Positions 6,407 to 17,524 of a DNA stretch of 24,000 nt are shown piece by piece; position 1 is the stretch's first letter, and the number at the start of each line of letters is the position of its first letter. The notes beneath the pieces were generated by a model, which searched no databases, was not told the DNA's origin, and was given only the letters and a program-made list of their open reading frames with translations. The stretch comes from Mobilitalea sibirica (GTDB taxonomy: Bacteria > Bacillota > Clostridia > Lachnospirales > Lachnospiraceae): NCBI RefSeq assembly GCF_015999265.1, contig NZ_JAEAGR010000001.1, positions 387,330 through 411,329 of the forward strand. The letters are read 5' to 3'. A program made the translations under genes and the position numbers.

Positions 6407-7285
6407 ATGGAAAAAGTGATGATCATTGATGATTCTCCGATTGACCGTAAAATGATTAAATTAGCATTGAAAAGTAAATTACCTGACATTCAGTTGATAG
6501 AAGCAGACCATGGTAAAAATATTGAAGAGATTTTATATTCACAGAAAGTCGATGTATGTATACTTGATATCATGATGCCGGAGAGGAATGGATTAGAGAT
6601 ATTAAAGGAAATAAAAGAAAAGGAAAGATATAGGGATATACCGATTATTGTTTGTTCAGGATTATATGATTGTGATATCTTAGAAAAAGCACTGGAGTTA
6701 GGGGCGCATGATTATTTTTCAAAACCACTGGGAAAAAAAGAAATCTCTATTTCTCTTCCTTTAAAAGTAAAAAATGCAATCGAACTTATGAAGTGGAAGG
6801 AAAAAATATTATACCTAAGTTATCATGATGTATTAACCGGATTATATAACAGAAGATTTGTGGAAGAAGAACTAATTCAATTAGATGAATTAGAAAAATT
6901 CCCCATATCTATTATTTTAGGCGATGTCAATGGATTGAAACATACAAATGATGTCTTCGGTCACGAAGCAGGTGATGAGATGTTAAAAAGAATTGCTCAT
7001 ATACTTCAAAAAGAATGCGTTAATGGTAGAGTGGCCCGTTATGGCGGCGATGAGTTTGTAGTTCTATTACCTGAAACAAACATTATGGAAGCTAAGAAAA
7101 TGATTGAATCAATTAAGGACCATTGTATAACGCAAACAAAAGACTCTGTAAAATTATCCATATCTTTAGGTTGTGCTATGAAGAGCAAAGGTAAAAAGAG
7201 CATGAAGCGCATTTTACAAGAAGCGGAGGATATGATGTATAATGATAAACTTCAGTATAGACAAATATACCAAACTAATCCGTGA
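6407..7285 (+). CDS. Response regulator-diguanylate cyclase (REC-GGDEF)
   Basis: 292 aa. The start lies 3 nt after the hybrid-kinase stop, with GGGAGG at 6391-6396. REC: MIIDDS...VCILDIMMPERNG...KP. GGDEF domain: HDVLTGLYNRR...GDVNGLKHTNDVFGHEAGD...RYGGDEFVVLL. The GGDEF codons are 7043-7057. Confidence 0.92.
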   Translation: MEKVMIIDDSPIDRKMIKLALKSKLPDIQLIEADHGKNIEEILYSQKVDVCILDIMMPERNGLEILKEIKEKERYRDIPIIVCSGLYDCDILEKALELGAHDYFSKPLGKKEISISLPLKVKNAIELMKWKEKILYLSYHDVLTGLYNRRFVEEELIQLDELEKFPISIILGDVNGLKHTNDVFGHEAGDEMLKRIAHILQKECVNGRVARYGGDEFVVLLPETNIMEAKKMIESIKDHCITQTKDSVKLSISLGCAMKSKGKKSMKRILQEAEDMMYNDKLQYRQIYQTNP

Positions 7286-7404: not shown

Positions 7405-9210
7405 ATGGAGAAAACACAAATGAAAAAATTTGTTGATGGTAAGGTTTTATTACAATGGTTTTATTTTGGGTTTCAGGAGGTGTACCAAAATAAGAAGTAT
7501 CTAAATGCGATTAATGTGTTCCCCGTTGCTGATGGTGATACCGGCACTAACTTATCTATAACACTAAAGGCAATGGTAGAAAAACCAATAAAGGTTAATA
7601 CATTTTCAGGAATGCTTCAGGCTATTTCTGAGGCGGGTCTAGCCAATGCAAGAGGTAATTCTGGTATTTTATTTGCATCTTACGTAAATGGTATTGCCTC
7701 TGAGGGAAGTAGCTATAAGGAAGTGACTTTGGAACAATTTTCAAGCATAGCCTATAAAGCAGTTTCTTATCTTTATCAGGCTGTGGAAAAGCCGATAGAG
7801 GGTACCATGATCAGTGTAATAAAGGATTGGGCTAATTACTTATATCAAAATTTTCAAAATTACGATAATTTCAAAGACCTTTTTGCTAATGCTTACCTAA
7901 CAGCTCAAAATTCGCTGAAAATGACAACATCACAGTTAGAAGTGCTTAAAAAAAATAAAGTTGTAGACTCTGGAGCGGATGGTTTTGTAAGATTTTTAAA
8001 TGGAATTAATTATTATTATTTGGCGAAAAAAGAAGTTAAAAGTGATAATGAAGTACAAGACAGTTTTAATCTCAGTAACCATGAGCAAAGTAACTATCTA
8101 TATTGTACTGAATTTTTTATGGATATATCCGAAAAGGATATCGTACCTATACGCAAAGATTTAAAAAAAATAATTCGGGACAAAATCAACCAGTTGGGTG
8201 ATTCTTTGATAATTACATCGTTTCAGGATAAAGTAAAAATTCATATTCATACAGATGTACCAGAAATAGTGGCACAAAGTTTGCGACCCTTTGGTACATT
8301 CATTGAACATAAAGTTGATAACATGCATCTTCAAAATAGTATAAAAACAAGACAATTAAGTAGGATTGGAATAGTTACAGATTCAATTGCTGATATACCG
8401 GAGGACTATAAATTAAAACATCAAATACATACATTACCATTGGGGCTGCTTATTGATGATTCCGTATATCTGGATAAGTCAACGATTAAGTTGGAACAGC
8501 TTTTTCATCTTATGAAAGATGCTGAAAGTTATCCAACGAGCTCTCAACCGGAACCTGGCAGAGTTTCTATTTTTCTTGATAACTTATTAGAAACCTATGA
8601 TTATTTAATTTTCATAACAGTTTCAAGTGAGTTGAGTGGTACATATCAGACAATACAGCAAGAAATTAAAAAGATAAAGGATGCTGAAAAAAAGATAACA
8701 TTGATTGATTCAAAAACGAATTCCGGTGCAGAAGGCTTACTGGTAAAATATGCTTCCAATCTACTCAATAATGGTTTATCTTATGAAGAGATTGCTAAAA
8801 AGGTAAAAGAACAAATTCCCAAGACTTATATCTATGTATGTCTGAATACCCTGGAATATGCAGTAAGAAGTGGGCGTGTACCCAACACAGTAGGTAAGGT
8901 TGGTATGAAGTTGGGCCTAAGACCAATCATGACAATAGATAGGAACGGAAAAGGGGCAGCTTTTGGTGTTGGATTTAGTCAGAAGGGTATGACAAAGAAA
9001 ATATTCAACCTCATAAAATCAACGATTGCCAGAAAAGGAATTCAGAGTTACTGTATCGTACATGCAGATAATCTGGAATTAGCTATGGAATATAAAAGTG
9101 AATTAACGAAAATGATTGGTAAAGAACCTGAGTTTATTACAGAAATATCTTCTGTCGTAGCTATACATTCCGGTTTAGGGTGTGTTGCAGTCTGCTTTAC
9201 TGAAAATTAA
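7405..9210 (+). CDS. Dak2 (DhaL/FakA-like N-terminal + central region) fused to a DegV (FakB-like fatty-acid-binding) domain
   Basis: 601 aa. N-terminus has INVFPVADGDTGTNL (the Dak2 nucleotide-binding DGDTGTN motif) and ARGNSG. The central region has YLYCTEFFM...KVKIHIHTDVPE, as in YloV/FakA. From aa ~320 (nt ~8362) there are DegV signatures: RIGIVTDSIADIPEDY and YPTSSQPEPG. RBS GAGGAG lies upstream of ATG 7405. Confidence 0.85.
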   Translation: MEKTQMKKFVDGKVLLQWFYFGFQEVYQNKKYLNAINVFPVADGDTGTNLSITLKAMVEKPIKVNTFSGMLQAISEAGLANARGNSGILFASYVNGIASEGSSYKEVTLEQFSSIAYKAVSYLYQAVEKPIEGTMISVIKDWANYLYQNFQNYDNFKDLFANAYLTAQNSLKMTTSQLEVLKKNKVVDSGADGFVRFLNGINYYYLAKKEVKSDNEVQDSFNLSNHEQSNYLYCTEFFMDISEKDIVPIRKDLKKIIRDKINQLGDSLIITSFQDKVKIHIHTDVPEIVAQSLRPFGTFIEHKVDNMHLQNSIKTRQLSRIGIVTDSIADIPEDYKLKHQIHTLPLGLLIDDSVYLDKSTIKLEQLFHLMKDAESYPTSSQPEPGRVSIFLDNLLETYDYLIFITVSSELSGTYQTIQQEIKKIKDAEKKITLIDSKTNSGAEGLLVKYASNLLNNGLSYEEIAKKVKEQIPKTYIYVCLNTLEYAVRSGRVPNTVGKVGMKLGLRPIMTIDRNGKGAAFGVGFSQKGMTKKIFNLIKSTIARKGIQSYCIVHADNLELAMEYKSELTKMIGKEPEFITEISSVVAIHSGLGCVAVCFTEN

Positions 9211-9239
9211 TATTACTATAATGATAAAGGAGAATTACT

Positions 9240-10022
9240 ATGAAGATTATTGAGTTATCATCTTTAAGACGGTTTAATTTTTTTATGGGAATACTACATT
9301 TCCTCCAAGGTTGTTTTATGCTTTTTGTATCATTGAATATAGAAAAGGTTAAAAGCTTTACACCAGCTATTTTATCATACTATTTAACCTTTGATACAAA
9401 TCAAATGCGCCTGGTTACTGATGTGAATGAATTATTTCATTTACCATTTGGTATTTTGGTTTCTGCCTTTTTATTTGTCTCTGCAATAGCCCATTTTATT
9501 ATTGTCTTACCCGGAACCAATGGAATATATAACAGAGGACTGGAGAAAGGAATTAATCATTTCCGATGGTATGAATATTCTATCAGTTCTTCTATTATGA
9601 TCGTACTAATCTCGGTTTTATTTGGGGTTTATGATATTGGTGCATTAATTTTAATCTTTGCAGTAAATGCATCTATGAACTTATTTGGTTTATTAATGGA
9701 AAAGATAAATCAGTTTACAAAAAAATCTGATTGGAGTCCTTTTATATATGGAACAATCGCCGGTATTGCTCCTTGGATTGTAATACTGCTATATGCATTT
9801 GGTAACAGTGAACCGGATAAAATTCCATGGTTTGTATATGCCATTGTCTCTTCCTACTTTATATTCTTTAATCTATTTCCGATTAATATGGTTCTTCAGT
9901 ATCTTAAGGTTGGAAGATGGAAGAACTATCTGTATGGTGAGAAAATTTACATTGTTTTAAGCTTGGTTGCAAAATCAATATTAGCATGGCTTGTTTTTTC
10001 CGGTGTTATGCAACCTAATTAA
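9240..10022 (+). CDS. Heliorhodopsin (7-TM retinal-binding protein)
   Basis: 260 aa, about 7 hydrophobic helices. AAAGGAG at 9226-9232 lies 7 nt before the ATG, and only 29 nt separate it from the upstream stop. Motifs: GILHFLQ (H20), AIAHFI (H85), FRWYEYSISSSIMIVLI (E112, codon 9573-9575), VNASMNLFG, YIVLSLVAKSILAWLVFSG (K245, codon 9972-9974). They align with the heliorhodopsin 48C12 motifs I recall: FRWVEYSLSSS, NASMILFG, YIVLSLVAKSALAW (Schiff-base Lys). Confidence 0.85.
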   Translation: MKIIELSSLRRFNFFMGILHFLQGCFMLFVSLNIEKVKSFTPAILSYYLTFDTNQMRLVTDVNELFHLPFGILVSAFLFVSAIAHFIIVLPGTNGIYNRGLEKGINHFRWYEYSISSSIMIVLISVLFGVYDIGALILIFAVNASMNLFGLLMEKINQFTKKSDWSPFIYGTIAGIAPWIVILLYAFGNSEPDKIPWFVYAIVSSYFIFFNLFPINMVLQYLKVGRWKNYLYGEKIYIVLSLVAKSILAWLVFSGVMQPN

Positions 10023-10312
10023 TTAAGTGGTATGAGAGATAATACTATAAGAAAGACCATGAATTAATAGATAACCACTAGATGCTTACTTAATTACATA
10101 AACCATTATTATAAGAATGAATAATGATGGCAATAAGTATATATTGTATTACAGAATTCTGAACATGAGATATCAGTGCCATTTGCACTGTGAATAATGA
10201 CGAAAGGCACTTTTATTCATGGGTTTATTATTATAGTATAACTATGTAGAGAATATCTACTAACATATACTTATGTCTCCCCCCCAATGACATAGTGATC
10301 CTTTTTTCCACC

Positions 10313-10350
10313 TTAAGATACGCCCTGTTATGTAACAGGGCGTATCTTAA
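10313..10350. repeat. Perfect inverted repeat with 18-nt arms and a 2-nt spacer (strong hairpin or operator candidate)
   Basis: TTAAGATACGCCCTGTTA TG TAACAGGGCGTATCTTAA, read directly. It has a GC-rich core in an AT-rich spacer. A T6 run lies just upstream (10302-10307) and no T-run follows. It ends about 4 nt before the AAAGGAG at 10354-10360. Confidence 0.7.
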
Positions 10351-10399
10351 ATCAAAGGAGACTTTTTAATTGGAAACTATAATGCTGAGGAGTGGTACT

Positions 10400-11335
10400 A
10401 TGGAAAAAACAGAAATTATTATTCATACTAAATTAACAATTGGAGTTAGTGCATGTTGTATGGGAAGTCCAGTAAGATACAACGGAAAGGGGTGGGATTT
10501 ACTTAAAAATCTAGGACGGGAAAAGAATGATTTTCGATGGTGTCCTGTTTGTCCTGAGTGTATGGCCGGTTTAGGAGTGTTAAGAGAACCTATACGTCTG
10601 TCTGGAGGAGATGGAACTAAAGTATGGACCGGAGATGCTGAAGTGAAAAATCGTAAAGGTGAGATTGTTACTAATAAGGTGATAGAAGGTGCTTTAGCAT
10701 GTATAGAGGCCTTAAGCAGGGCTGGTGCCATAGCATATGTGTATATGGACGGAAGTCCCTCCTGCGGAGTGTACCGGACAACCCTAAAAAATACAAACAG
10801 AGGAAATCCTCCAGGTGTTTTTGGTGCAAAACTTTTGGAACTTGGATTTTTCCTAATACCGGCATCTGATTTACAAAGTCCACTAAAGTGGTGGGATTGG
10901 AGGAGACGTTTATTAGCTTTTTATTGGTTGAAAAATGTGCCATTGGATTCGAAAAACCAATTATATGAGGCTTGGTATAAAACAAAATTCTTATGCAGAG
11001 AGCTTAATCAAGAATGGACTCAAAATATTGGAAGAAATCTTGCATTAATCGTAGAAGAAGATGTTAAGGAGTTTGGTGATAGGTTTCGTAAGGAAGCCTT
11101 GGATTTACTTCGAAAGCCTTCTAATACAAAAAAAATTACCAATAGTTTATGGGCACAGTATTCATATTATAAAAAACTTCAAGGAAAATCAATAGAAGAA
11201 ATAAATGCTCCGGAAATCAAAAGAAATGTTACGTCAATTGCAAAAGAACTGTTACTTATGGAACGAAAAGCACATGAAGATAAAGTGTTTTTTGGCACTT
11301 CTCCTGTGCTTTATCGCGATAAAAGAAGCAATTAG
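10400..11335 (+). CDS. DUF523 (TudS-like [4Fe-4S] 2-thiouracil desulfidase domain) fused to DUF1722 (YbgA-like)
   Basis: N-terminal IGVSACCMGSPVRYNGKG, CPVCPECMAGLGVLREP and DGSPSCGV give the three-Cys DUF523 pattern. The C-terminal ~170 aa are helical and Trp-rich (WWDWRRRLLAFYWLK...), like YbgA/DUF1722. I prefer ATG 10400 (GAGGAG at 10387-10392). The track start TTG 10370 (AAAGGAG at 10354-10360) cannot be excluded. Confidence 0.8.
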   Translation: MEKTEIIIHTKLTIGVSACCMGSPVRYNGKGWDLLKNLGREKNDFRWCPVCPECMAGLGVLREPIRLSGGDGTKVWTGDAEVKNRKGEIVTNKVIEGALACIEALSRAGAIAYVYMDGSPSCGVYRTTLKNTNRGNPPGVFGAKLLELGFFLIPASDLQSPLKWWDWRRRLLAFYWLKNVPLDSKNQLYEAWYKTKFLCRELNQEWTQNIGRNLALIVEEDVKEFGDRFRKEALDLLRKPSNTKKITNSLWAQYSYYKKLQGKSIEEINAPEIKRNVTSIAKELLLMERKAHEDKVFFGTSPVLYRDKRSN

Positions 11336-11354
11336 GAGAGGAGGATTAATTACA

Positions 11355-12113
11355 ATGATTCATACGATGCTTTTTATTTTTGCCTATTTTCTATTATTCT
11401 TTATCATAGGAACGATAAGAAAAAACAATTCTATTGTAGATATAGGATGGGGATTAGGATTCGTTGCAGTCGCTTGGGACATACTTCTGATTACAGATGA
11501 AATCAAACTAAGTCAATGGCTTATTGTTCTATGTGTTTCTACTTGGGGTTTAAGGTTATTTATACATATTTATAAACGAAATAAAGGAAAGCCAGAGGAC
11601 TTTCGGTACGCAGCTTGGAGGAGAGAATGGGGAAAATGGCTCATACCCAGATCATTTTTTCAAATCTATATGCTACAAGCGTTTTTTATGTTTATAATCG
11701 CACTCCCAATTATTTTTACCCGGTATATTAATGATGAAGTACAATTAGGAATACTTATCATTGGATTCTTAATTTGGATAACTGGGTTTTGCTTTGAAGT
11801 GGTAAGCGACAATCAACTGAGAGTTTTTTTAAAGAAACAGGAAAATAGAGGTAAGCTTATGATGGATGGTCTCTGGCGCTTTACCAGACATCCTAATTAT
11901 TTTGGCGAAGCTACCTTGTGGTGGGGAATATATTTAATGGCATTGAGCTTAGGAGTGCCGGTACTTACAATTATCAGCCCAATTACGATCACTGTGCTTT
12001 TAGTTTTTGTATCTGGAATTCCCCTGTTAGAGAATTCAATGAAAAACAAACCAGAGTATCAAGAATATGCTGAAAAGACGAGTATATTTATACCCTGGTT
12101 TCCAAAAAAATAG
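11355..12113 (+). CDS. DUF1295 family polytopic membrane protein (steroid-5-alpha-reductase / ICMT-like fold)
   Basis: SIVDIGWGLGFV, WGLRLFIHIYKRNKGKPEDFRY and LWRFTRHPNYFGEATLWWG are the hallmark DUF1295 motifs. I prefer ATG 11355, with GGAGAGGAGG at 11335-11344. The 11205 start in the track would overlap the upstream gene by 131 nt. Confidence 0.8.
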   Translation: MIHTMLFIFAYFLLFFIIGTIRKNNSIVDIGWGLGFVAVAWDILLITDEIKLSQWLIVLCVSTWGLRLFIHIYKRNKGKPEDFRYAAWRREWGKWLIPRSFFQIYMLQAFFMFIIALPIIFTRYINDEVQLGILIIGFLIWITGFCFEVVSDNQLRVFLKKQENRGKLMMDGLWRFTRHPNYFGEATLWWGIYLMALSLGVPVLTIISPITITVLLVFVSGIPLLENSMKNKPEYQEYAEKTSIFIPWFPKK

Positions 12114-12130
12114 TGGAGGTAATAATTATT

Positions 12131-12526
12131 ATGCAACTTATCCGTAATTACATAATTACTCTTGTGGTGTTTTTAATCATTGATATGGTTTGGCTTTCTG
12201 TTATAGCAAGGCCAATCTATAAAAAGTATCTGGGATACATAATGGCTGAAAAAGTCAATCTTTTTGCTGCGTTTTTGTTCTATACCATCTTTATACTTGG
12301 AATTGTAGTATTTGTACTTAATCCAGCATTTATGAAAGGTAATTGGTCTTCAGCTTTACTTATGGGAGCATTCTTTGGTTTAGTAACCTATTCAACCTAC
12401 GACCTTACAAATCTTGCGACTGTGAAAGAGTGGCCCATATTTATTACGGTAGTTGACTTATTATGGGGAAGTTTTGTAAGTGGAATTACTTCATTAATTA
12501 GTTATCTGATTATAAAATCAATGTAA
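12131..12526 (+). CDS. DUF2177 family small membrane protein
   Basis: 131 aa, 4 predicted TM helices. LVVFLIIDMVWL...Y...L and GLVTYSTYDLTNLATVKEWP...VDLLWG match the DUF2177 pattern I recall. GGAGG at 12115-12119 precedes ATG 12131. The alternative GTG 12113 overlaps the upstream stop. Confidence 0.7.
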   Translation: MQLIRNYIITLVVFLIIDMVWLSVIARPIYKKYLGYIMAEKVNLFAAFLFYTIFILGIVVFVLNPAFMKGNWSSALLMGAFFGLVTYSTYDLTNLATVKEWPIFITVVDLLWGSFVSGITSLISYLIIKSM

Positions 12527-12578: not shown

Positions 12579-12714
12579 TGTTTAAAAATTATAAAATTAG
12601 ATAGAAACTTGATATGTCAAGCAAAACTTATTAAAAATGTCATCATTAAAGCAATCTTTTGGCAGGCATATGTATTTGGCAAACTGAAAAATTATAATAA
12701 TGGAGGAAAAACTA

Positions 12715-12873
12715 ATGAAAAAATATGAATGCCCATGTGGCTATGTTTACGATCCTATTGCAGGGGATCTTGAAAACGGGATTGAACCTGGGACTACTTG
12801 GGAAGAGCTTCCTGATACATGGACTTGTCCATTATGTGGTCTTGAAAAAGAAACCTTTACTGAAGTTGAATAA
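12715..12873 (+). CDS. Rubredoxin (52 aa), absent from the ORF track because of its size
   Basis: My translation: [57 protein letters not shown] at 12702-12706 lies 8 nt before the ATG. It aligns with Clostridium pasteurianum rubredoxin (GY.YDP...G..PGT.F..LP..W.CP.CG). The first Cys knuckle reads C-P-C-G rather than C-x-x-C-G. Confidence 0.85.
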
Positions 12874-12917
12874 TTATTTCTATGTTAAGTCAATAATTTA
12901 GAGAATGAGGGTTAAAA

Positions 12918-13304
12918 ATGAAAAAAAATCTTGAATTTTATAGGTGTAAGCATTGTGGAAATTTAATAGTTTTTATTAATAAATCTATAGAACAGGTGAC
13001 TTGTTGTAATGAAAAAATGATGAGTATTTCTCCCAACACAGTAGAAGCTTCTGTTGAAAAGCATTTACCGGTTGTTCGATTTGAAGGTAACAAAACTAGC
13101 GTATCTGTAGGTAGTATTGAACACCCCATGAATCCTGAGCATTATATTGAGTGGATCGTACTTGAGACAGATCATGGTTTCCGGATTGAATATCTGGAAC
13201 CAGGTAATAAACCTGAAGTATTCTTTAATAAGGATGAGGCTATGCCGATAGCCGTTTATGCATATTGTAATTTGCATGGATTATGGAAAACAGATATGGT
13301 ATAG
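12918..13304 (+). CDS. dfx: Desulfoferrodoxin (2Fe superoxide reductase)
   Basis: 128 aa. The N-terminal desulforedoxin-like site is YRCKHCGNLI...VTCCNEKM. The SOR domain has EKHLPVV, HPMNPEHYIEWI and AYCNLHGLWK (His/Cys ligands of centre II). It is collinear with Desulfovibrio Dfx as I recall it. Confidence 0.9.
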   Translation: MKKNLEFYRCKHCGNLIVFINKSIEQVTCCNEKMMSISPNTVEASVEKHLPVVRFEGNKTSVSVGSIEHPMNPEHYIEWIVLETDHGFRIEYLEPGNKPEVFFNKDEAMPIAVYAYCNLHGLWKTDMV

Positions 13305-13344
13305 ATTAAATATTTATGTATCATCATGTGAAAGGATGAAGCAA

Positions 13345-13857
13345 ATGCTAAACAAAGAAGTGCTACATTTATTAAATCAACAGATCAACAAAGAGCTGTA
13401 TTCCGCATATCTTTATTTGGATATGGCAAATTATTATGCAGATCAAAATCTTAGTGGATTTGAGAACTGGTTCTATGTACAGGCTCAAGAGGAACGTGAC
13501 CATGCAATGTTGTTTCGTCAGTATTTGATAAACAATGGCGAGCGTATCGTATTAGAAGAAATTGCTGCCCCGGATAAAAAATATATCTCATTTCGAGATC
13601 CCCTTATAATTTCTTTCGAGCATGAGAAATACGTAACAGATTCTATTAATATAATATACAATGCTGCAAATCAAATAAAAGATTTTCGTACAATGCAATT
13701 TTTAGATTGGTTTATCAAAGAGCAGGGTGAAGAAGAAAAGAATGCCGATGATAATATTAAAAAGTTTGATTTATTTGCCGGTGATTCAAAAGGACTTTTT
13801 ATGTTGGATAATGAGATGAAATCCAGAATTTATAATCCACCGTCTTTGCTATTATAA
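13345..13857 (+). CDS. ftn: Non-haem ferritin
   Basis: MLNKEVLHLLNQQINKELYSAYLYLDMANYY...QAQEERDHAM...EHEKYVTDSIN...FLDWFIKEQGEEE shows the ferroxidase-centre E, ExxH, E and QxxE pattern. I prefer ATG 13345 (AAAGGA about 8 nt upstream). The track start 13258 overlaps dfx and is unlikely. Confidence 0.85.
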   Translation: MLNKEVLHLLNQQINKELYSAYLYLDMANYYADQNLSGFENWFYVQAQEERDHAMLFRQYLINNGERIVLEEIAAPDKKYISFRDPLIISFEHEKYVTDSINIIYNAANQIKDFRTMQFLDWFIKEQGEEEKNADDNIKKFDLFAGDSKGLFMLDNEMKSRIYNPPSLLL

Positions 13858-14005
13858 AACGGAGTATATAATATAGTTGCTAATTCATAGAGGGGAATAT
13901 ATGTAGCTAGAGCCGGTGTTCAAGCTGATTTATACTGAGAGTATACGGTGGATCATACGGGAAGATAGATTGAGATGTAATTATAAAATAATAGAAATAA
14001 TCAGT

Positions 14006-14042
14006 AAAGGCTTGCATCAATTTGATGTAGGCTTTTATCTTT
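14006..14042 (+). terminator. Rho-independent terminator candidate downstream of ferritin
   Basis: AAAGGCTTGCATCA (14006-14019) pairs with TGATGTAGGCTTTT (14023-14036): 14 bp including 3 G-U pairs, with a 3-nt loop. A T-rich tail TTTTATCTTT follows. Confidence 0.5.
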
Positions 14043-14281
14043 AATATATTAAGTGCTATAAATCATTTTTGAAATATAAAATTGGATATTAATGCGGATC
14101 TGGTAGAAAATATCCGGTCATCACTGTAACTTTCGTTCATCCTACCTCGGACAAAATTCTCACCCACGCGCTCATAATTTCTTTCGAGAGAAGCATACCC
14201 GGGATTTTATAGTTGTTTTTGATTGGATACCGAATACGAATAGTTTCGCTGGAAACAATAAGATTTGGAGGTGATTTTACT

Positions 14282-15055
14282 ATGATATCACGAAAATCAG
14301 TTATAACGTTTGGTATGGTCGCAATCCCAATTGCGATGTTTACAGCTACACAGGATAACGACATTCATTTTAATCAGCTGCATAAGGAAGATAATAGTCG
14401 CATTCGTTACAAGAAAAGTTGTGCCCATTGTGGAAAAGAAATTAAAGGTGAAGATATTGTTAAGGGATTTGAGTATGATGATGACAAGTATGTCGTCATT
14501 ACAGACGAAGAAATAGAGAAAATTAAAACAGAAAAAGAAAAGTCAATCCAGATCTTACATTTTGCCCAGTTAAACCAGATTTCCCCTGTCTACTATGAAA
14601 AGACCTATCAGGCGGCCCCTGAGGCAGGAGGTGAAAAGGCCTTCGAGTTGCTCAGGTCTGCTTTGATGGCAGAACAAAAGATTGCCATAGGTAAAACTGT
14701 CCTGGGAACCAAGGATACACTGATGGCAATTATACCGCGGGAGGATGGTGTGCTCATTTCCACTATGCACTATGCTGACGAGGTTAAAGCGCTACAAAGA
14801 CAGTATAATAAGCCGAATATATCCGAACAGGAGCTTGGCATGGCAAAAATGCTAATCAATTCAATGGATACACCCTTTGATCCTTCGAAATATAAAGACG
14901 AATACCAGACAAGACTTCGGGAGCTTATCGAGACTAAAATATCCGGCAAAGAGGTTGTGGCTGCTGAACCTGTAAGCGAAGGTAAGGTAATTGATCTTAT
15001 GGAGGCCCTTAGAGCGAGCGTGGAAAAAGCAAAGACAGACAAAGAAACGGCTTAA
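14282..15055 (+). CDS. ku: Ku DNA end-binding protein (bacterial NHEJ)
   Basis: MISRKSVITFGMVAIPIAMFTAT...IRYKKSCAHCGKEIKGEDIVKGFEY...YVVITDEE...PVYYEKTYQAAPE..GEKAFELLRSAL is the canonical bacterial Ku core. GGAGG at 14267-14271 precedes ATG 14282. The track start 14213 is probably too early. Confidence 0.9.
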   Translation: MISRKSVITFGMVAIPIAMFTATQDNDIHFNQLHKEDNSRIRYKKSCAHCGKEIKGEDIVKGFEYDDDKYVVITDEEIEKIKTEKEKSIQILHFAQLNQISPVYYEKTYQAAPEAGGEKAFELLRSALMAEQKIAIGKTVLGTKDTLMAIIPREDGVLISTMHYADEVKALQRQYNKPNISEQELGMAKMLINSMDTPFDPSKYKDEYQTRLRELIETKISGKEVVAAEPVSEGKVIDLMEALRASVEKAKTDKETA

Positions 15056-15058
15056 TAT

Positions 15059-17524
15059 ATGATAGGAGAATTAAAAGAATACAATCAAAAAAGGAATTTT
15101 GATAGAACCCTGGAGCCGGAAGGAGAAGCAGAATACTCAGAAGAAGGTCTGAGATTTGTCATCCAACACCACATGGCACGAAGAGAACATTACGATCTAC
15201 GTCTGGAGTGGGCAGGCGTTCTCTTAAGCTTTGCGGTACCCAAGGGACCATCCTATAAAACCAAGGATAGAAGACTAGCAGTACAGGTTGAGGATCATCC
15301 GTTGGAATATAGGAATTTTGAAGGGACGATACCCAAAGGGGAATACGGTGGAGGGGTAGTTATGCTCTGGGATGAAGGCTTTTGGGAGCCTTATATTAAT
15401 GTGGAAGAAGGCTTGCGAGAAGGTGTACTGAAGTTTGTATTAAAAGGTAGAAGACTTAAGGGAAAGTGGGCTCTAATTCGGATAAAAGGGAGTCCAGGAG
15501 AGAAAGCGGACAACTGGCTTTTTCTAAAAGAGAAGGATGAGTATGTGAAAGATACTGACGGGATATCAGGATTTGTTACCAGCATCAGGACCGGCCGCAC
15601 CATGGAGGAAATTGAGAAGGGGGAAGATGAGAAATTCATAAAAAACCCTTTTCAAGTGGCGCAGGTGCAGCTGGCTAAGCTAGTGAAGACCATACCTGAG
15701 GATGAGAATTGGCTCTATGAACTGAAATATGACGGGTATCGAATCATGGCCTTTGTGGAAGGTAACAGCGCCCGTCTAATCACTAGGAACGGGAATGATT
15801 TCGCTCATCGCTTTCATGACATAGTATCCTCTCTTTTAAGTTTCTCTTCAGGAAGAGCAATGGTTCTGGATGATGAAATCGCAGTGACAGACGCAGCGGG
15901 TAAGACCGATTTTCAGGCGCTTCAAAACTATATGAAAAACCCGAAAGGTAAAAATCTTACTTATATCGTCTTTGATCTTCTGGCGTTGGATGGGGTAGAT
16001 CTTCGTAACCGCCCTCTTATCAAGAGAAAAGAGATGCTTGAGACACTTATGAAGGATACTCCCAAAAACCTTTATTATAGCCGCTATATCAGAGGAAAAG
16101 GGAAAGAAAGCTTTGCTGTGGCCTGTGAGGCAGATATGGAAGGAATTATCGGCAAGAAGGCTGACTCTGTCTATAGCGGAACAAGAAACGGTGACTGGAT
16201 TAAAGTAAAATGTGATAAAAGGCAGGAGTTCGTAATCGGAGGCTATACCAGGTCCGAAAAAAGAACCAATGGCATAAGCTCGTTGCTCCTTGGTGTCTAT
16301 GAAAAGGAAGAACTAGTTTTTGCAGGACGTGCCGGCACAGGTTTTAGCGAAGCTGAAATGAAGAGACTGGAAGAGAAATTTGACAACATACAGAGGATGG
16401 CTTCACCTTTCCGAGTAGAGCCAAAACTAAAAGCCGATGAAAGGATTATATGGCTTGAGCCTGTATTTGTTGCGGAGATAAAATTTGCCGAATGGACCCA
16501 GGAGAATCTGTTAAGGCAGGCTAGTTATAAAGGCTTGCGAGAGGACAAGGATCCCAAAGAGGTAAGAAGAGAAAAAGCAGAGAAGGAAACAGAGGAAGAA
16601 ATAGAGGAAGAAACTCTACCTCAGTCATCTGTAGAAGAAGAGGAAAAGCCAGTGATAGATACAGACAGCCGTCTCAGGATTCAGGGAGTGAAGATTACCA
16701 ATCCAGATAAGGTGTTATTCGATGATCCTAAGATCACGAAGGAAGAGGTAATCAGGTATTATGCGGAGGTATCGATACGGATGCTGCCGTATGTGAGTCA
16801 TAGGCTTCTTAGTGCGATCCGCTGCCCCAAGGGAATATCCCAGACCTGCTTCTTTAAAAAACATCCCGGACCAGGGAGTAAACAGGTAATTGCATATCCA
16901 GTATCTACTAGTAGTGGAGAAACAGAAGATTACTTTTATGTTGAAAATGCAGCCGGACTGATAGAGGAAGCTCAGATGGGTACACTAGAGTTTCATATCT
17001 GGGGCAGCAGTGTCGAAACCCTTGAAATGCCCGATATGATGGTTTTTGATTTAGATCCGGATGAAGGAATGGAGCTTGACAGAGTACGACAAGGCGTACT
17101 GGATGTGAGAGGGATTCTTACTGAACTATCACTTAACTCCTATCTTAAAACCAGTGGAGGTAAAGGTTATCATGTGGTTGTTCCTCTTAAGCCGGTGGCT
17201 TCCTGGGAGGTTTTTCATGATTTTGCAAGACGGGTAGCAGAGGTTATGGAGCAGAAGTGGCCGGATCGTTATACCAGTAATGTAAGAAAATCCAAGCGTA
17301 AAGGCAAAATCTTCATCGATTGGATGAGAAATGGAAGAGGGGCTACCAGTATTGCACCCTATTCACTAAGAGCAAGAAAAGGAGCCAGGGTGTCTATGCC
17401 AATTTCATGGGATGAGCTTGATACGGTGGCACCAGACAGCGTCACTATGAAGGAAGCGCTTATAAGAAGCGGTGGAGACGACCCTTGGAACGGTTTTTTT
17501 GAGAACAATCAAATGCTAAAATAA
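15059..17524 (+). CDS. ligD: Multifunctional DNA ligase D (3'-phosphoesterase - ATP-dependent ligase - primase/polymerase)
   Basis: 821 aa, starting 3 nt after the ku stop. PE domain: FVIQHHMARREHYDLRLE...VEDHPLEY..FEGTIP. Ligase motif I: YELKYDGYR (Lys codon 15725-15727). OB region: VKCDKRQEFVIGGY. Glu-rich linker. Pol domain: MVFDLDPDEG, KTSGGKGYHVVVPL, IDWMRNGRGATSIAPYSLR. Confidence 0.92.
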   Translation: MIGELKEYNQKRNFDRTLEPEGEAEYSEEGLRFVIQHHMARREHYDLRLEWAGVLLSFAVPKGPSYKTKDRRLAVQVEDHPLEYRNFEGTIPKGEYGGGVVMLWDEGFWEPYINVEEGLREGVLKFVLKGRRLKGKWALIRIKGSPGEKADNWLFLKEKDEYVKDTDGISGFVTSIRTGRTMEEIEKGEDEKFIKNPFQVAQVQLAKLVKTIPEDENWLYELKYDGYRIMAFVEGNSARLITRNGNDFAHRFHDIVSSLLSFSSGRAMVLDDEIAVTDAAGKTDFQALQNYMKNPKGKNLTYIVFDLLALDGVDLRNRPLIKRKEMLETLMKDTPKNLYYSRYIRGKGKESFAVACEADMEGIIGKKADSVYSGTRNGDWIKVKCDKRQEFVIGGYTRSEKRTNGISSLLLGVYEKEELVFAGRAGTGFSEAEMKRLEEKFDNIQRMASPFRVEPKLKADERIIWLEPVFVAEIKFAEWTQENLLRQASYKGLREDKDPKEVRREKAEKETEEEIEEETLPQSSVEEEEKPVIDTDSRLRIQGVKITNPDKVLFDDPKITKEEVIRYYAEVSIRMLPYVSHRLLSAIRCPKGISQTCFFKKHPGPGSKQVIAYPVSTSSGETEDYFYVENAAGLIEEAQMGTLEFHIWGSSVETLEMPDMMVFDLDPDEGMELDRVRQGVLDVRGILTELSLNSYLKTSGGKGYHVVVPLKPVASWEVFHDFARRVAEVMEQKWPDRYTSNVRKSKRKGKIFIDWMRNGRGATSIAPYSLRARKGARVSMPISWDELDTVAPDSVTMKEALIRSGGDDPWNGFFENNQMLK

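Follow-up and report, generated by a model that had tools for sequence, protein, structure and literature searches.

Which genes of a heliorhodopsin (HeR) locus belong together, and what ties them to light? This question is raised by a 24-kb stretch of Mobilitalea sibirica DNA (hereafter the window, whose positions are used throughout), in which a HeR gene is followed on the same strand by three closely spaced genes encoding a TudS-like desulfidase (gene 1), a DUF1295 protein, and a DUF2177 protein. What heliorhodopsin contributes to the physiology of its hosts is for the most part still unsettled. In the initial annotation of this DNA, the three genes were regarded as one module handling light-generated damage, with HeR as its sensor. 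Comparison with related loci points to a different division. The locus is probably composite, formed by the joining in M. sibirica of two light-linked modules, each conserved in its own right: a lipid trio, consisting of a FakA/DegV fusion gene upstream of HeR together with DUF1295 and DUF2177, and a RudS-like desulfidase, with HeR as a possible light input. The features on which the argument is built are the following:

7405-9210, + strand: FakA-like (Dak2 plus FakA middle domain) and DegV fusion gene, 601 aa (Pfam, NCBIfam)
9240-10022, + strand: heliorhodopsin (PF18761, NCBIfam HeR equivalog)
10023-10399, no strand: spacer of 377 nt, no gene or RNA family recognised (sequence, Rfam)
10313-10350, + strand: perfect 18+18-nt inverted repeat, 17-bp hairpin, no U-tract (repeat search)
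10400-11335, + strand: gene 1, TudS-like desulfidase, 311 aa (PF04463)
11355-12113, + strand: DUF1295, second gene of the trio (PF06966)
12131-12526, + strand: DUF2177, third gene of the trio, four transmembrane helices (PF09945)

The conserved unit around DUF1295 and DUF2177

The coordinates and the tight packing reported for gene 1, DUF1295, and DUF2177 were confirmed, with gaps of 19 nt (gene 1/DUF1295) and 17 nt (DUF1295/DUF2177) and ribosome-binding sites of the GGAGG type. HeR starts 29 nt 3' of the FakA/DegV gene. The products of gene 1, HeR, and DUF2177 are 100% identical to the M. sibirica NCBI proteins P0001, P0241, and P0121, respectively.

Related loci were looked up with DUF2177 as anchor (L085, from a metagenome-assembled genome of Mobilitalea sp., L087, L088-90, L098, and L099-101) and with HeR as anchor (L091/92 and L102). 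Eight independent Firmicute DUF2177 contexts were compared, namely the window, L085, L087, L088-90, L091/92, L098, L099-101, and L042/44, and a gene for a Dak2+DegV fusion of ~600 aa accompanies DUF1295 and DUF2177 in all eight. The order of the trio is constant except in L042/L044 and its gaps are short; orthologues of the FakA/DegV gene are located directly upstream of DUF1295-DUF2177 in L085, L087, L088, L091/92, L098, and L099-101. Since the trio is kept in 8/8 contexts, the conserved unit is therefore FakA/DegV-DUF1295-DUF2177. This does not agree with the module as originally drawn, which left out the FakA/DegV gene upstream of HeR and included the TudS-like gene, an accessory present in two of the eight contexts. 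HeR and gene 1 of the window are placed after the first gene of the trio and before its second.

HeR (PF18761, E 2.8e-101; NCBIfam HeR equivalog, E 1.4e-96) takes up different positions relative to the trio: in the window it is enclosed by the trio, in L091/92 it follows at the 3' end after a gap of 44 nt, and in L102 it adjoins DUF2177 (9-nt gap). It is absent from five trio contexts (L085, L087, L088, L098, and L099-101), and three further HeR loci harbor no trio; HeR is thus a variable addition to the trio. DegV and DUF2177, along with DUF1295, were described as the most characteristic neighbours of HeR genes, most strongly in Firmicutes and Chloroflexi (Chazan et al., bioRxiv 10.1101/2021.02.16.431466), and a DUF2177 group is found among HeR operons (Nat Commun 2024, PMC11109279). 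The window shows the same four families around a Firmicute HeR, all on the + strand within 7405-12526, and the same set occurs in L091/92. Unlike in the published neighbourhood, HeR is enclosed by the trio instead of standing at the end, DegV forms part of a fusion with a FakA-like kinase, and a TudS/RudS-like gene is inserted; DUF523 has 0 occurrences in the main text of Chazan et al. As side observations, DUF2177 and HeR of L102 (393-4085) are followed on the same strand by genes for an S-adenosylmethionine (SAM) methyltransferase and a Y-family DNA polymerase (IMS), and in L099-L101 (3486-7420) the trio is immediately preceded by a LexA gene of the same orientation.

The fusion protein is recognised by the Pfam families DegV (1.6e-64), Dak2 (4.3e-28), and FakA-like_M (2.4e-17) and by the NCBIfam models YloV (8e-74, residues 16-316) and DegV (4.6e-72, residues 321-598). 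It thereby combines the Dak2 and FakA middle domains of the Firmicute fatty acid kinase FakA with a FakB-like, fatty-acid-binding DegV domain. Unlike in the FakA/FakB system, kinase and binding protein reside in one chain of 601 aa, with DegV replacing the usual C-terminal domain of FakA. Because its scores are far under the equivalog cut-offs (FakA, 149.6 vs 975 bits; FakB, 96.1 vs 350 bits), this is probably a fatty acid kinase of a specialised, single-chain type.

The DUF1295 protein matches PF06966 over positions 1-235 of 235 (E 1.2e-72; 244.7 bits vs a cut-off of 20.4). Further matches place it closest to the steroid reductase family (Steroid_dh, 4.6e-9), ahead of PEMT (1.7e-6) and ICMT (2e-4), and a weak match to the bacterial SRD5A structure 7C83 extends over the RHPNYxGE cofactor motif. 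A fungal DUF1295-like protein is an ene-reductase. The DUF2177 protein matches PF09945 over positions 3-124 of 124 (E 3.4e-44; 150.3 bits vs 26.9) and contains a conserved polar/aromatic motif, YDLTN..T...WP...T..D..WG; its AlphaFold2 model is a confident four-helix bundle with a predicted local distance difference test (pLDDT) score of 92.9. An alternative start of this gene, a GTG at 12113 that overlaps the DUF1295 stop (TAGTG), would yield 137 aa, the usual length of the homologues; a better ribosome-binding site precedes the annotated ATG (12131).

Gene 1 and the TudS-like subfamily

Gene 1 consists of a TudS-type [4Fe-4S] desulfidase domain (residues ~12-155) and a C-terminal six-helix domain (~161-293). 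The former is matched by PF04463 (2-thiouracil desulfurase/DUF523/TudS) with an E-value of 6.7e-26 and 91.4 bits against a gathering cut-off of 34.7, residues 14-153 aligning with profile positions 1-137 of 141; 49/49 subfamily members match this profile. In an alignment of 49 homologues (A1), C19, C51, C122, E53, S119, R62, R26, and Y27 are invariant, N28 is at least 90% conserved, and almost every member shown has S or T at the position of S121. These residues correspond to the functional set of RudS_KT (C17/C49/C114/E51/S111/S113/R60/R24/Y25/N26), including the R-Y-N motif that contacts tRNA; mutagenesis of RudS_KT revealed a role of R24, Y25, N26, and R60 in tRNA binding and catalysis (PMC11417400). 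The cysteine ligands of the cluster and the catalytic Glu/Ser residues of TudS (C10/C43/C104, E45, S101/S103) are likewise all retained. The A1 profile matches the TudS structure 6Z92 (E 2e-7) with the SAC..G, CPE, and GSPSCG motifs aligned, and the AlphaFold2 model of gene 1 (pLDDT 88.6) matches TudS 6Z93_A in Foldseek (E 1.1e-6, probability 1.00, target TM 0.75).

RudS is a TudS-DUF1722 fusion that acts as tRNA 4-thiouridine (s4U) desulfidase and is encoded in light-responsive operons with photolyase and LitR (Nucleic Acids Res 2024, PMC11417400). It reduces the s4U content of tRNA and shortens the growth delay induced by UVA (PMC11417400). Gene 1 resembles RudS in its TudS domain, three Cys ligands, catalytic Glu/Ser/Arg, and R-Y-N motif, and also in a helical C-terminal domain of similar size. 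In the AlphaFold2 model, this domain forms a confident, all-helical six-helix bundle of about the size of DUF1722. Of the four family calls made initially, DUF523, DUF1295, and DUF2177 lie above the Pfam cut-offs, and DUF1722 falls short. Its profile (PF08349) reaches 15.8-17.7 bits on gene 1 (cut-off 22.5) and covers positions 1-64 of 117 only; 34/49 subfamily members match it at E<0.1, with a best value of 6.3e-5. Comparison with E. coli YbgA by hhalign gave a probability of 6.5% (E 0.0056), and a profile of the C-terminal domain retrieved only 63 matches from 1.84 billion representative proteins, with Pfam DUF1722 in 0/10 of the weaker matches scanned. The domain may be a very distant relative of DUF1722. 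Judged by its conserved residues and domain layout, gene 1 has a RudS-like architecture and is a probable tRNA s4U desulfidase. Further differences from RudS are that the subfamily is hosted by anaerobic Firmicutes and Spirochaetes instead of Proteobacteria, that no LitR/MerR regulator lies near gene 1, and that its desulfidase activity is putative. An uncharacterised RudS-like subfamily is thereby defined, with hundreds of members in anaerobes and a C-terminal domain not recognisable as DUF1722.

The genomic surroundings of this subfamily were surveyed in 84 other TudS-like loci, whose members share 48-69% identity; all neighbouring open reading frames (ORFs) were clustered into families, the largest of which were named via Pfam and NCBIfam. 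Photolyase is the commonest specific neighbour, adjacent to the TudS-like gene in 22/84 loci and always on the same strand; among the 46 loci with 1.5 kb or more on each side, the count is 15. Class II photolyases (TIGR00591, E 1e-148) account for 18 loci, mostly directly upstream of the TudS-like gene, and class I photolyases, directly downstream, for four. A family of ABC-type ATPases occurs in more loci (28), mostly not adjoining the TudS-like gene. Carotenoid genes (phytoene desaturase/synthase) follow it in four loci (L003, L059, L075, and L076). A location in light-related operons, as known for RudS, is hence a trait of the subfamily (photolyase, carotenoid genes); in the window, the light-related partner is HeR. 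As HeR adjoins 0/84 of the other TudS-like loci, it is not a specific partner of the TudS-like gene.

Several other neighbours recur. The closest homologue of gene 1, P0002 (69% identity; L003, 9484-14787, and L004), belongs to an operon of overlapping genes in the order glutathione peroxidase, TudS-like, tocopherol-cyclase-like, with phytoene desaturase, phytoene synthase, rubrerythrin, and Fur genes nearby. A pyridoxal-phosphate-dependent enzyme (PALP) and a divergent alanine-racemase-N/D-serine-dehydratase-like gene are found directly upstream of the TudS-like gene in ~11 loci (L020, L035, L039, L045, and L050-L055). Genes for GGDEF diguanylate cyclases (family 4) adjoin it in 11 loci, including L020, L026, L027, L035, L039, L045, L059, L066, and L071.

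Joining of the two modules

The trio and the TudS-like gene meet in a second lineage, L042/L044, in the order class II photolyase, TudS-like gene (8-nt overlap), DUF2177, FakA/DegV, and DUF1295. Across four proteins, this lineage shares 39-63% identity with the window, and its gene order differs. Joining of the two modules is consequently seen in two lineages far apart, with HeR in one and photolyase in the other and with different gene orders, which disfavours chance alone. Since L042/L044 carries a photolyase, the trio is tied to light independently of HeR. The window and L042/L044 thus link the trio to three light-related partners: HeR, class II photolyase, and a RudS-like desulfidase. These observations, together with the separate conservation of trio and desulfidase subfamily, carry the composite reading, which we hold to be probable.

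A number of points weigh against this reading. The TudS-like gene occurs in only 2/8 trio contexts and is missing from 6/8, and the trio is absent from 82/84 and HeR from 84/84 of the other TudS-like loci; because most loci of each lack the other, any coupling of trio and TudS-like gene is facultative. The sample is small and consists mostly of metagenome contigs, and since some loci are near-duplicates (e.g. L018/L019/L081, L062-64, and L077-79), the counts overstate the number of independent events. HeR and gene 1 are separated by 377 nt with a strong hairpin, for which reason their co-transcription is unproven. Membership of the gene 1 C-terminal domain in DUF1722 is not established, so that tRNA specificity is only inferred, and gene 1 possibly recycles thiolated nucleotides like stand-alone TudS. 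No solved structure in the PDB matches the DUF2177 model significantly, and NADPH and SAM are not separable as DUF1295 cofactor by sequence. To our knowledge, no bacterial DUF1295 or DUF2177 protein has an established biochemical function.

Proposed mechanism and significance

The following scheme takes the composite of lipid trio, RudS-like desulfidase, and HeR as its starting point; gene order, family membership, conservation of catalytic residues, and neighbourhood statistics are direct results, from which all biochemistry and the regulation by HeR are inferred. The trio would form a membrane-lipid handling pathway, in which the DegV domain binds a fatty acid that the FakA-like kinase activates. 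The target of DUF1295, whose fold is of the steroid-reductase/PEMT type, would be a double bond in a lipid; reduction with NADPH is the most likely reaction, methylation with SAM a less likely one, and DUF2177 would serve as four-helix membrane partner of the enzyme. By analogy with RudS, gene 1 would strip sulfur from s4U in tRNA. The near-UV-absorbing group responsible for tRNA crosslinks and stalled growth would thereby be eliminated. HeR may provide light input through contact with a membrane or lipid-binding protein of the locus, by analogy with HeR proteins elsewhere that interact with glutamine synthetase, photolyase, and an ABC transporter (PMC11109279). M. sibirica is a strict anaerobe obtained from a microbial mat (PMC8104048), an origin that makes its exposure to light plausible. 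The strain P3M-3T is cultured, so that the hypothesis is testable in the host itself. Production or handling of the retinal chromophore by the trio (SRD5A-type enzymes reduce isoprenoids) was also considered and rejected as main reading, as most trio loci are devoid of HeR.

HeR has been hypothesised to take part in the remodelling of membrane lipids (Chazan et al., bioRxiv 10.1101/2021.02.16.431466), and the evidence obtained here independently of HeR strengthens this proposal. The idea put forward in the initial annotation is largely already published, since the association of HeR with DegV, DUF2177, and DUF1295 (bioRxiv 10.1101/2021.02.16.431466) and the presence of RudS in light operons (PMC11417400) have both been reported. 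The new element is modest, i.e. the joining of a RudS-like gene with the HeR-associated lipid trio in one locus, which is an instructive example and not a new system.

Comparison with other light-linked systems

The theme of light and photo-oxidative stress sensed in the initial annotation is supported by the photolyase genes beside the TudS-like gene, by the published HeR neighbours DUF2177 and DUF1295, by the induction of the latter families in an alga, and by the known place of RudS in light operons. The genes that singlet oxygen induces in a SAK1-dependent manner in Chlamydomonas include DUF1295 and DUF2177 members, along with genes for cyclopropane fatty acid (CFA) synthase and DUF1365 (eLife 2014, PMC4067076); the point of likeness to the window is that these two families are co-induced there with lipid-modifying genes under photo-oxidative stress. 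For the furan fatty acid operon controlled by ChrR-sigmaE in R. sphaeroides (JBC 2020, PMC7380195), the membership of RSP1087-1091 in DUF1295/DUF2177 is unconfirmed. In contrast to these singlet-oxygen regulons, the window harbors no cfa-like, DUF1365 (UfaO), UfaD, or extracytoplasmic function (ECF) sigma/anti-sigma gene, and the partner of DUF1295 and DUF2177 is the fatty acid kinase/DegV fusion. A literature search on DUF1365 with photolyase and cyclopropane found nothing.

The adjacency of ybgA and the photolyase gene phr in E. coli, to which the initial annotation had appealed, is real: ybgA lies upstream and the genes overlap by 4 nt. Overlaps of photolyase and TudS-like genes are also seen in the subfamily, as in L042. 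E. coli YbgA differs from gene 1 in being a stand-alone DUF1722 protein with no desulfidase domain, and there is no photolyase gene in the 24-kb window, as had been noted from the outset.

Alternative explanations

A more ambitious form of the lipid pathway would make the trio a dedicated system for repair or remodelling of light-damaged membrane lipids in anaerobic Firmicutes, with HeR, class II photolyase, and the RudS-like desulfidase as interchangeable partners and HeR as light-gated allosteric regulator of the membrane enzyme pair DUF1295/DUF2177. We regard it as rather unlikely. If true, heliorhodopsin would gain a defined enzymatic output and two widespread DUF families their first function.

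The view from which the analysis started, a dedicated light-damage operon of YbgA-like, DUF1295, and DUF2177 genes that lacks a photolyase, has HeR as sensor, and is kin to the photolyase-cfa-DUF1365 clusters under ChrR-sigmaE or LitR in Proteobacteria, is improbable. The close packing of the three genes speaks for it, as do the link of each family to light or singlet oxygen and the position of HeR as the next gene upstream. HeR does precede gene 1; the two are, however, not directly adjoining in view of the 377-nt spacer and its 17-bp hairpin. Across the eight contexts, it is FakA/DegV that accompanies DUF1295-DUF2177, and a TudS-like gene leads this pair in the window only, while HeR is not shared with the other TudS-like loci. 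The proposed kinship finds no counterpart in the gene content either: Pfam analysis of the large ORFs in the 24 kb revealed no ChrR/sigmaE, LitR/CarH, MerR, cfa-like, DUF1365, amine-oxidase, or short-chain dehydrogenase/reductase (SDR) gene. Moreover, the term 'photolyase-less' applies to the window locus alone, the subfamily being typically photolyase-linked.

Alternatively, a chance rearrangement could have split FakA/DegV from DUF1295 by bringing in the TudS-like gene and HeR, with no functional tie between the TudS-like gene and the trio. The rarity with which the two modules co-occur (see above) agrees with such an event, and the 377-nt spacer with its unusual hairpin resembles a junction. 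Against this, the divergent L042/L044 lineage keeps the TudS-like gene beside the trio in another order and with a photolyase; a random adjacency arising twice among ~8 contexts is very unlikely, and the trio and the TudS-like subfamily each associate independently with light-related genes. We therefore give this explanation as little credence as the three-gene operon.

A general oxygen/peroxide stress island of a strict anaerobe, in which a PerR-like response would group the Fe-S desulfidase and the lipid genes with those for rubredoxin, superoxide reductase, ferritin, Ku, and LigD, is very unlikely: the latter genes do follow downstream, the first three of them directly, P0002 lies between glutathione peroxidase and tocopherol-cyclase-like genes near rubrerythrin and Fur, and oxidative-stress families have been found near HeR (Chazan et al., bioRxiv 10.1101/2021.02.16.431466), but in other loci neither the trio nor the TudS-like gene has these downstream genes as companions, and the strongest recurrent partners, photolyase and HeR, are strictly light-dependent proteins, although the stress and light readings overlap in that light and O2 together cause photo-oxidative stress.

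Spacer hairpin and neighbouring genes

The arms of the hairpin at 10313-10350 are 100% complementary, and the structure lies 50 nt before the ATG of gene 1. A 116-nt stretch around it folds with -39.5 kcal/mol (z -5.7). Rfam reported nothing at the gathering cut-off in window or spacer, and an E-value scan gave only chance-level matches on the hairpin; a simple scan of the spacer detected no sigma-70-like site on the + strand. Possible roles of the hairpin are in RNA processing or stability, in attenuation, or as an operator. The palindrome has no second copy in the window (0/100 shuffles reach 2 matches) and none in the fetched loci, so that its interpretation as an operator or a repeat element is unsupported. 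A repeat of the motif CTTAAGAT at both ends of the three genes (80% over 15 nt) was rejected as being at chance level.

The trio and its inserted genes are flanked on the same strand by the following:

6407-7285, + strand: RR-GGDEF response regulator (Pfam)
12700-13857, + strand: rubredoxin, desulfoferrodoxin (superoxide reductase), and ferritin (Pfam, NCBIfam)

The downstream genes for rubredoxin, desulfoferrodoxin, and ferritin are followed by Ku and LigD (12700-17524) and resemble an oxygen/DNA-damage 'stress island'; in the other genomes examined, this set is not found with the trio or the TudS-like gene. Among the other large ORFs of the window, Pfam identified a methyl-accepting chemotaxis protein (MCP), CheB, a hybrid kinase, the RR-GGDEF protein, Ku, LigD, a two-component pair of the OmpR type, and a solute-binding protein. 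The RR-GGDEF gene is located 120 nt 5' of the FakA/DegV gene, and a link of the TudS-like gene or the window locus to cyclic di-GMP is possible.

In one further locus (L095, 13173-14426, - strand), the UV damage endonuclease UvdE is fused to a domain called DUF1722 by Pfam, 4.4 kb from a HeR gene, which constitutes a further tie of DUF1722 to UV-damage functions.

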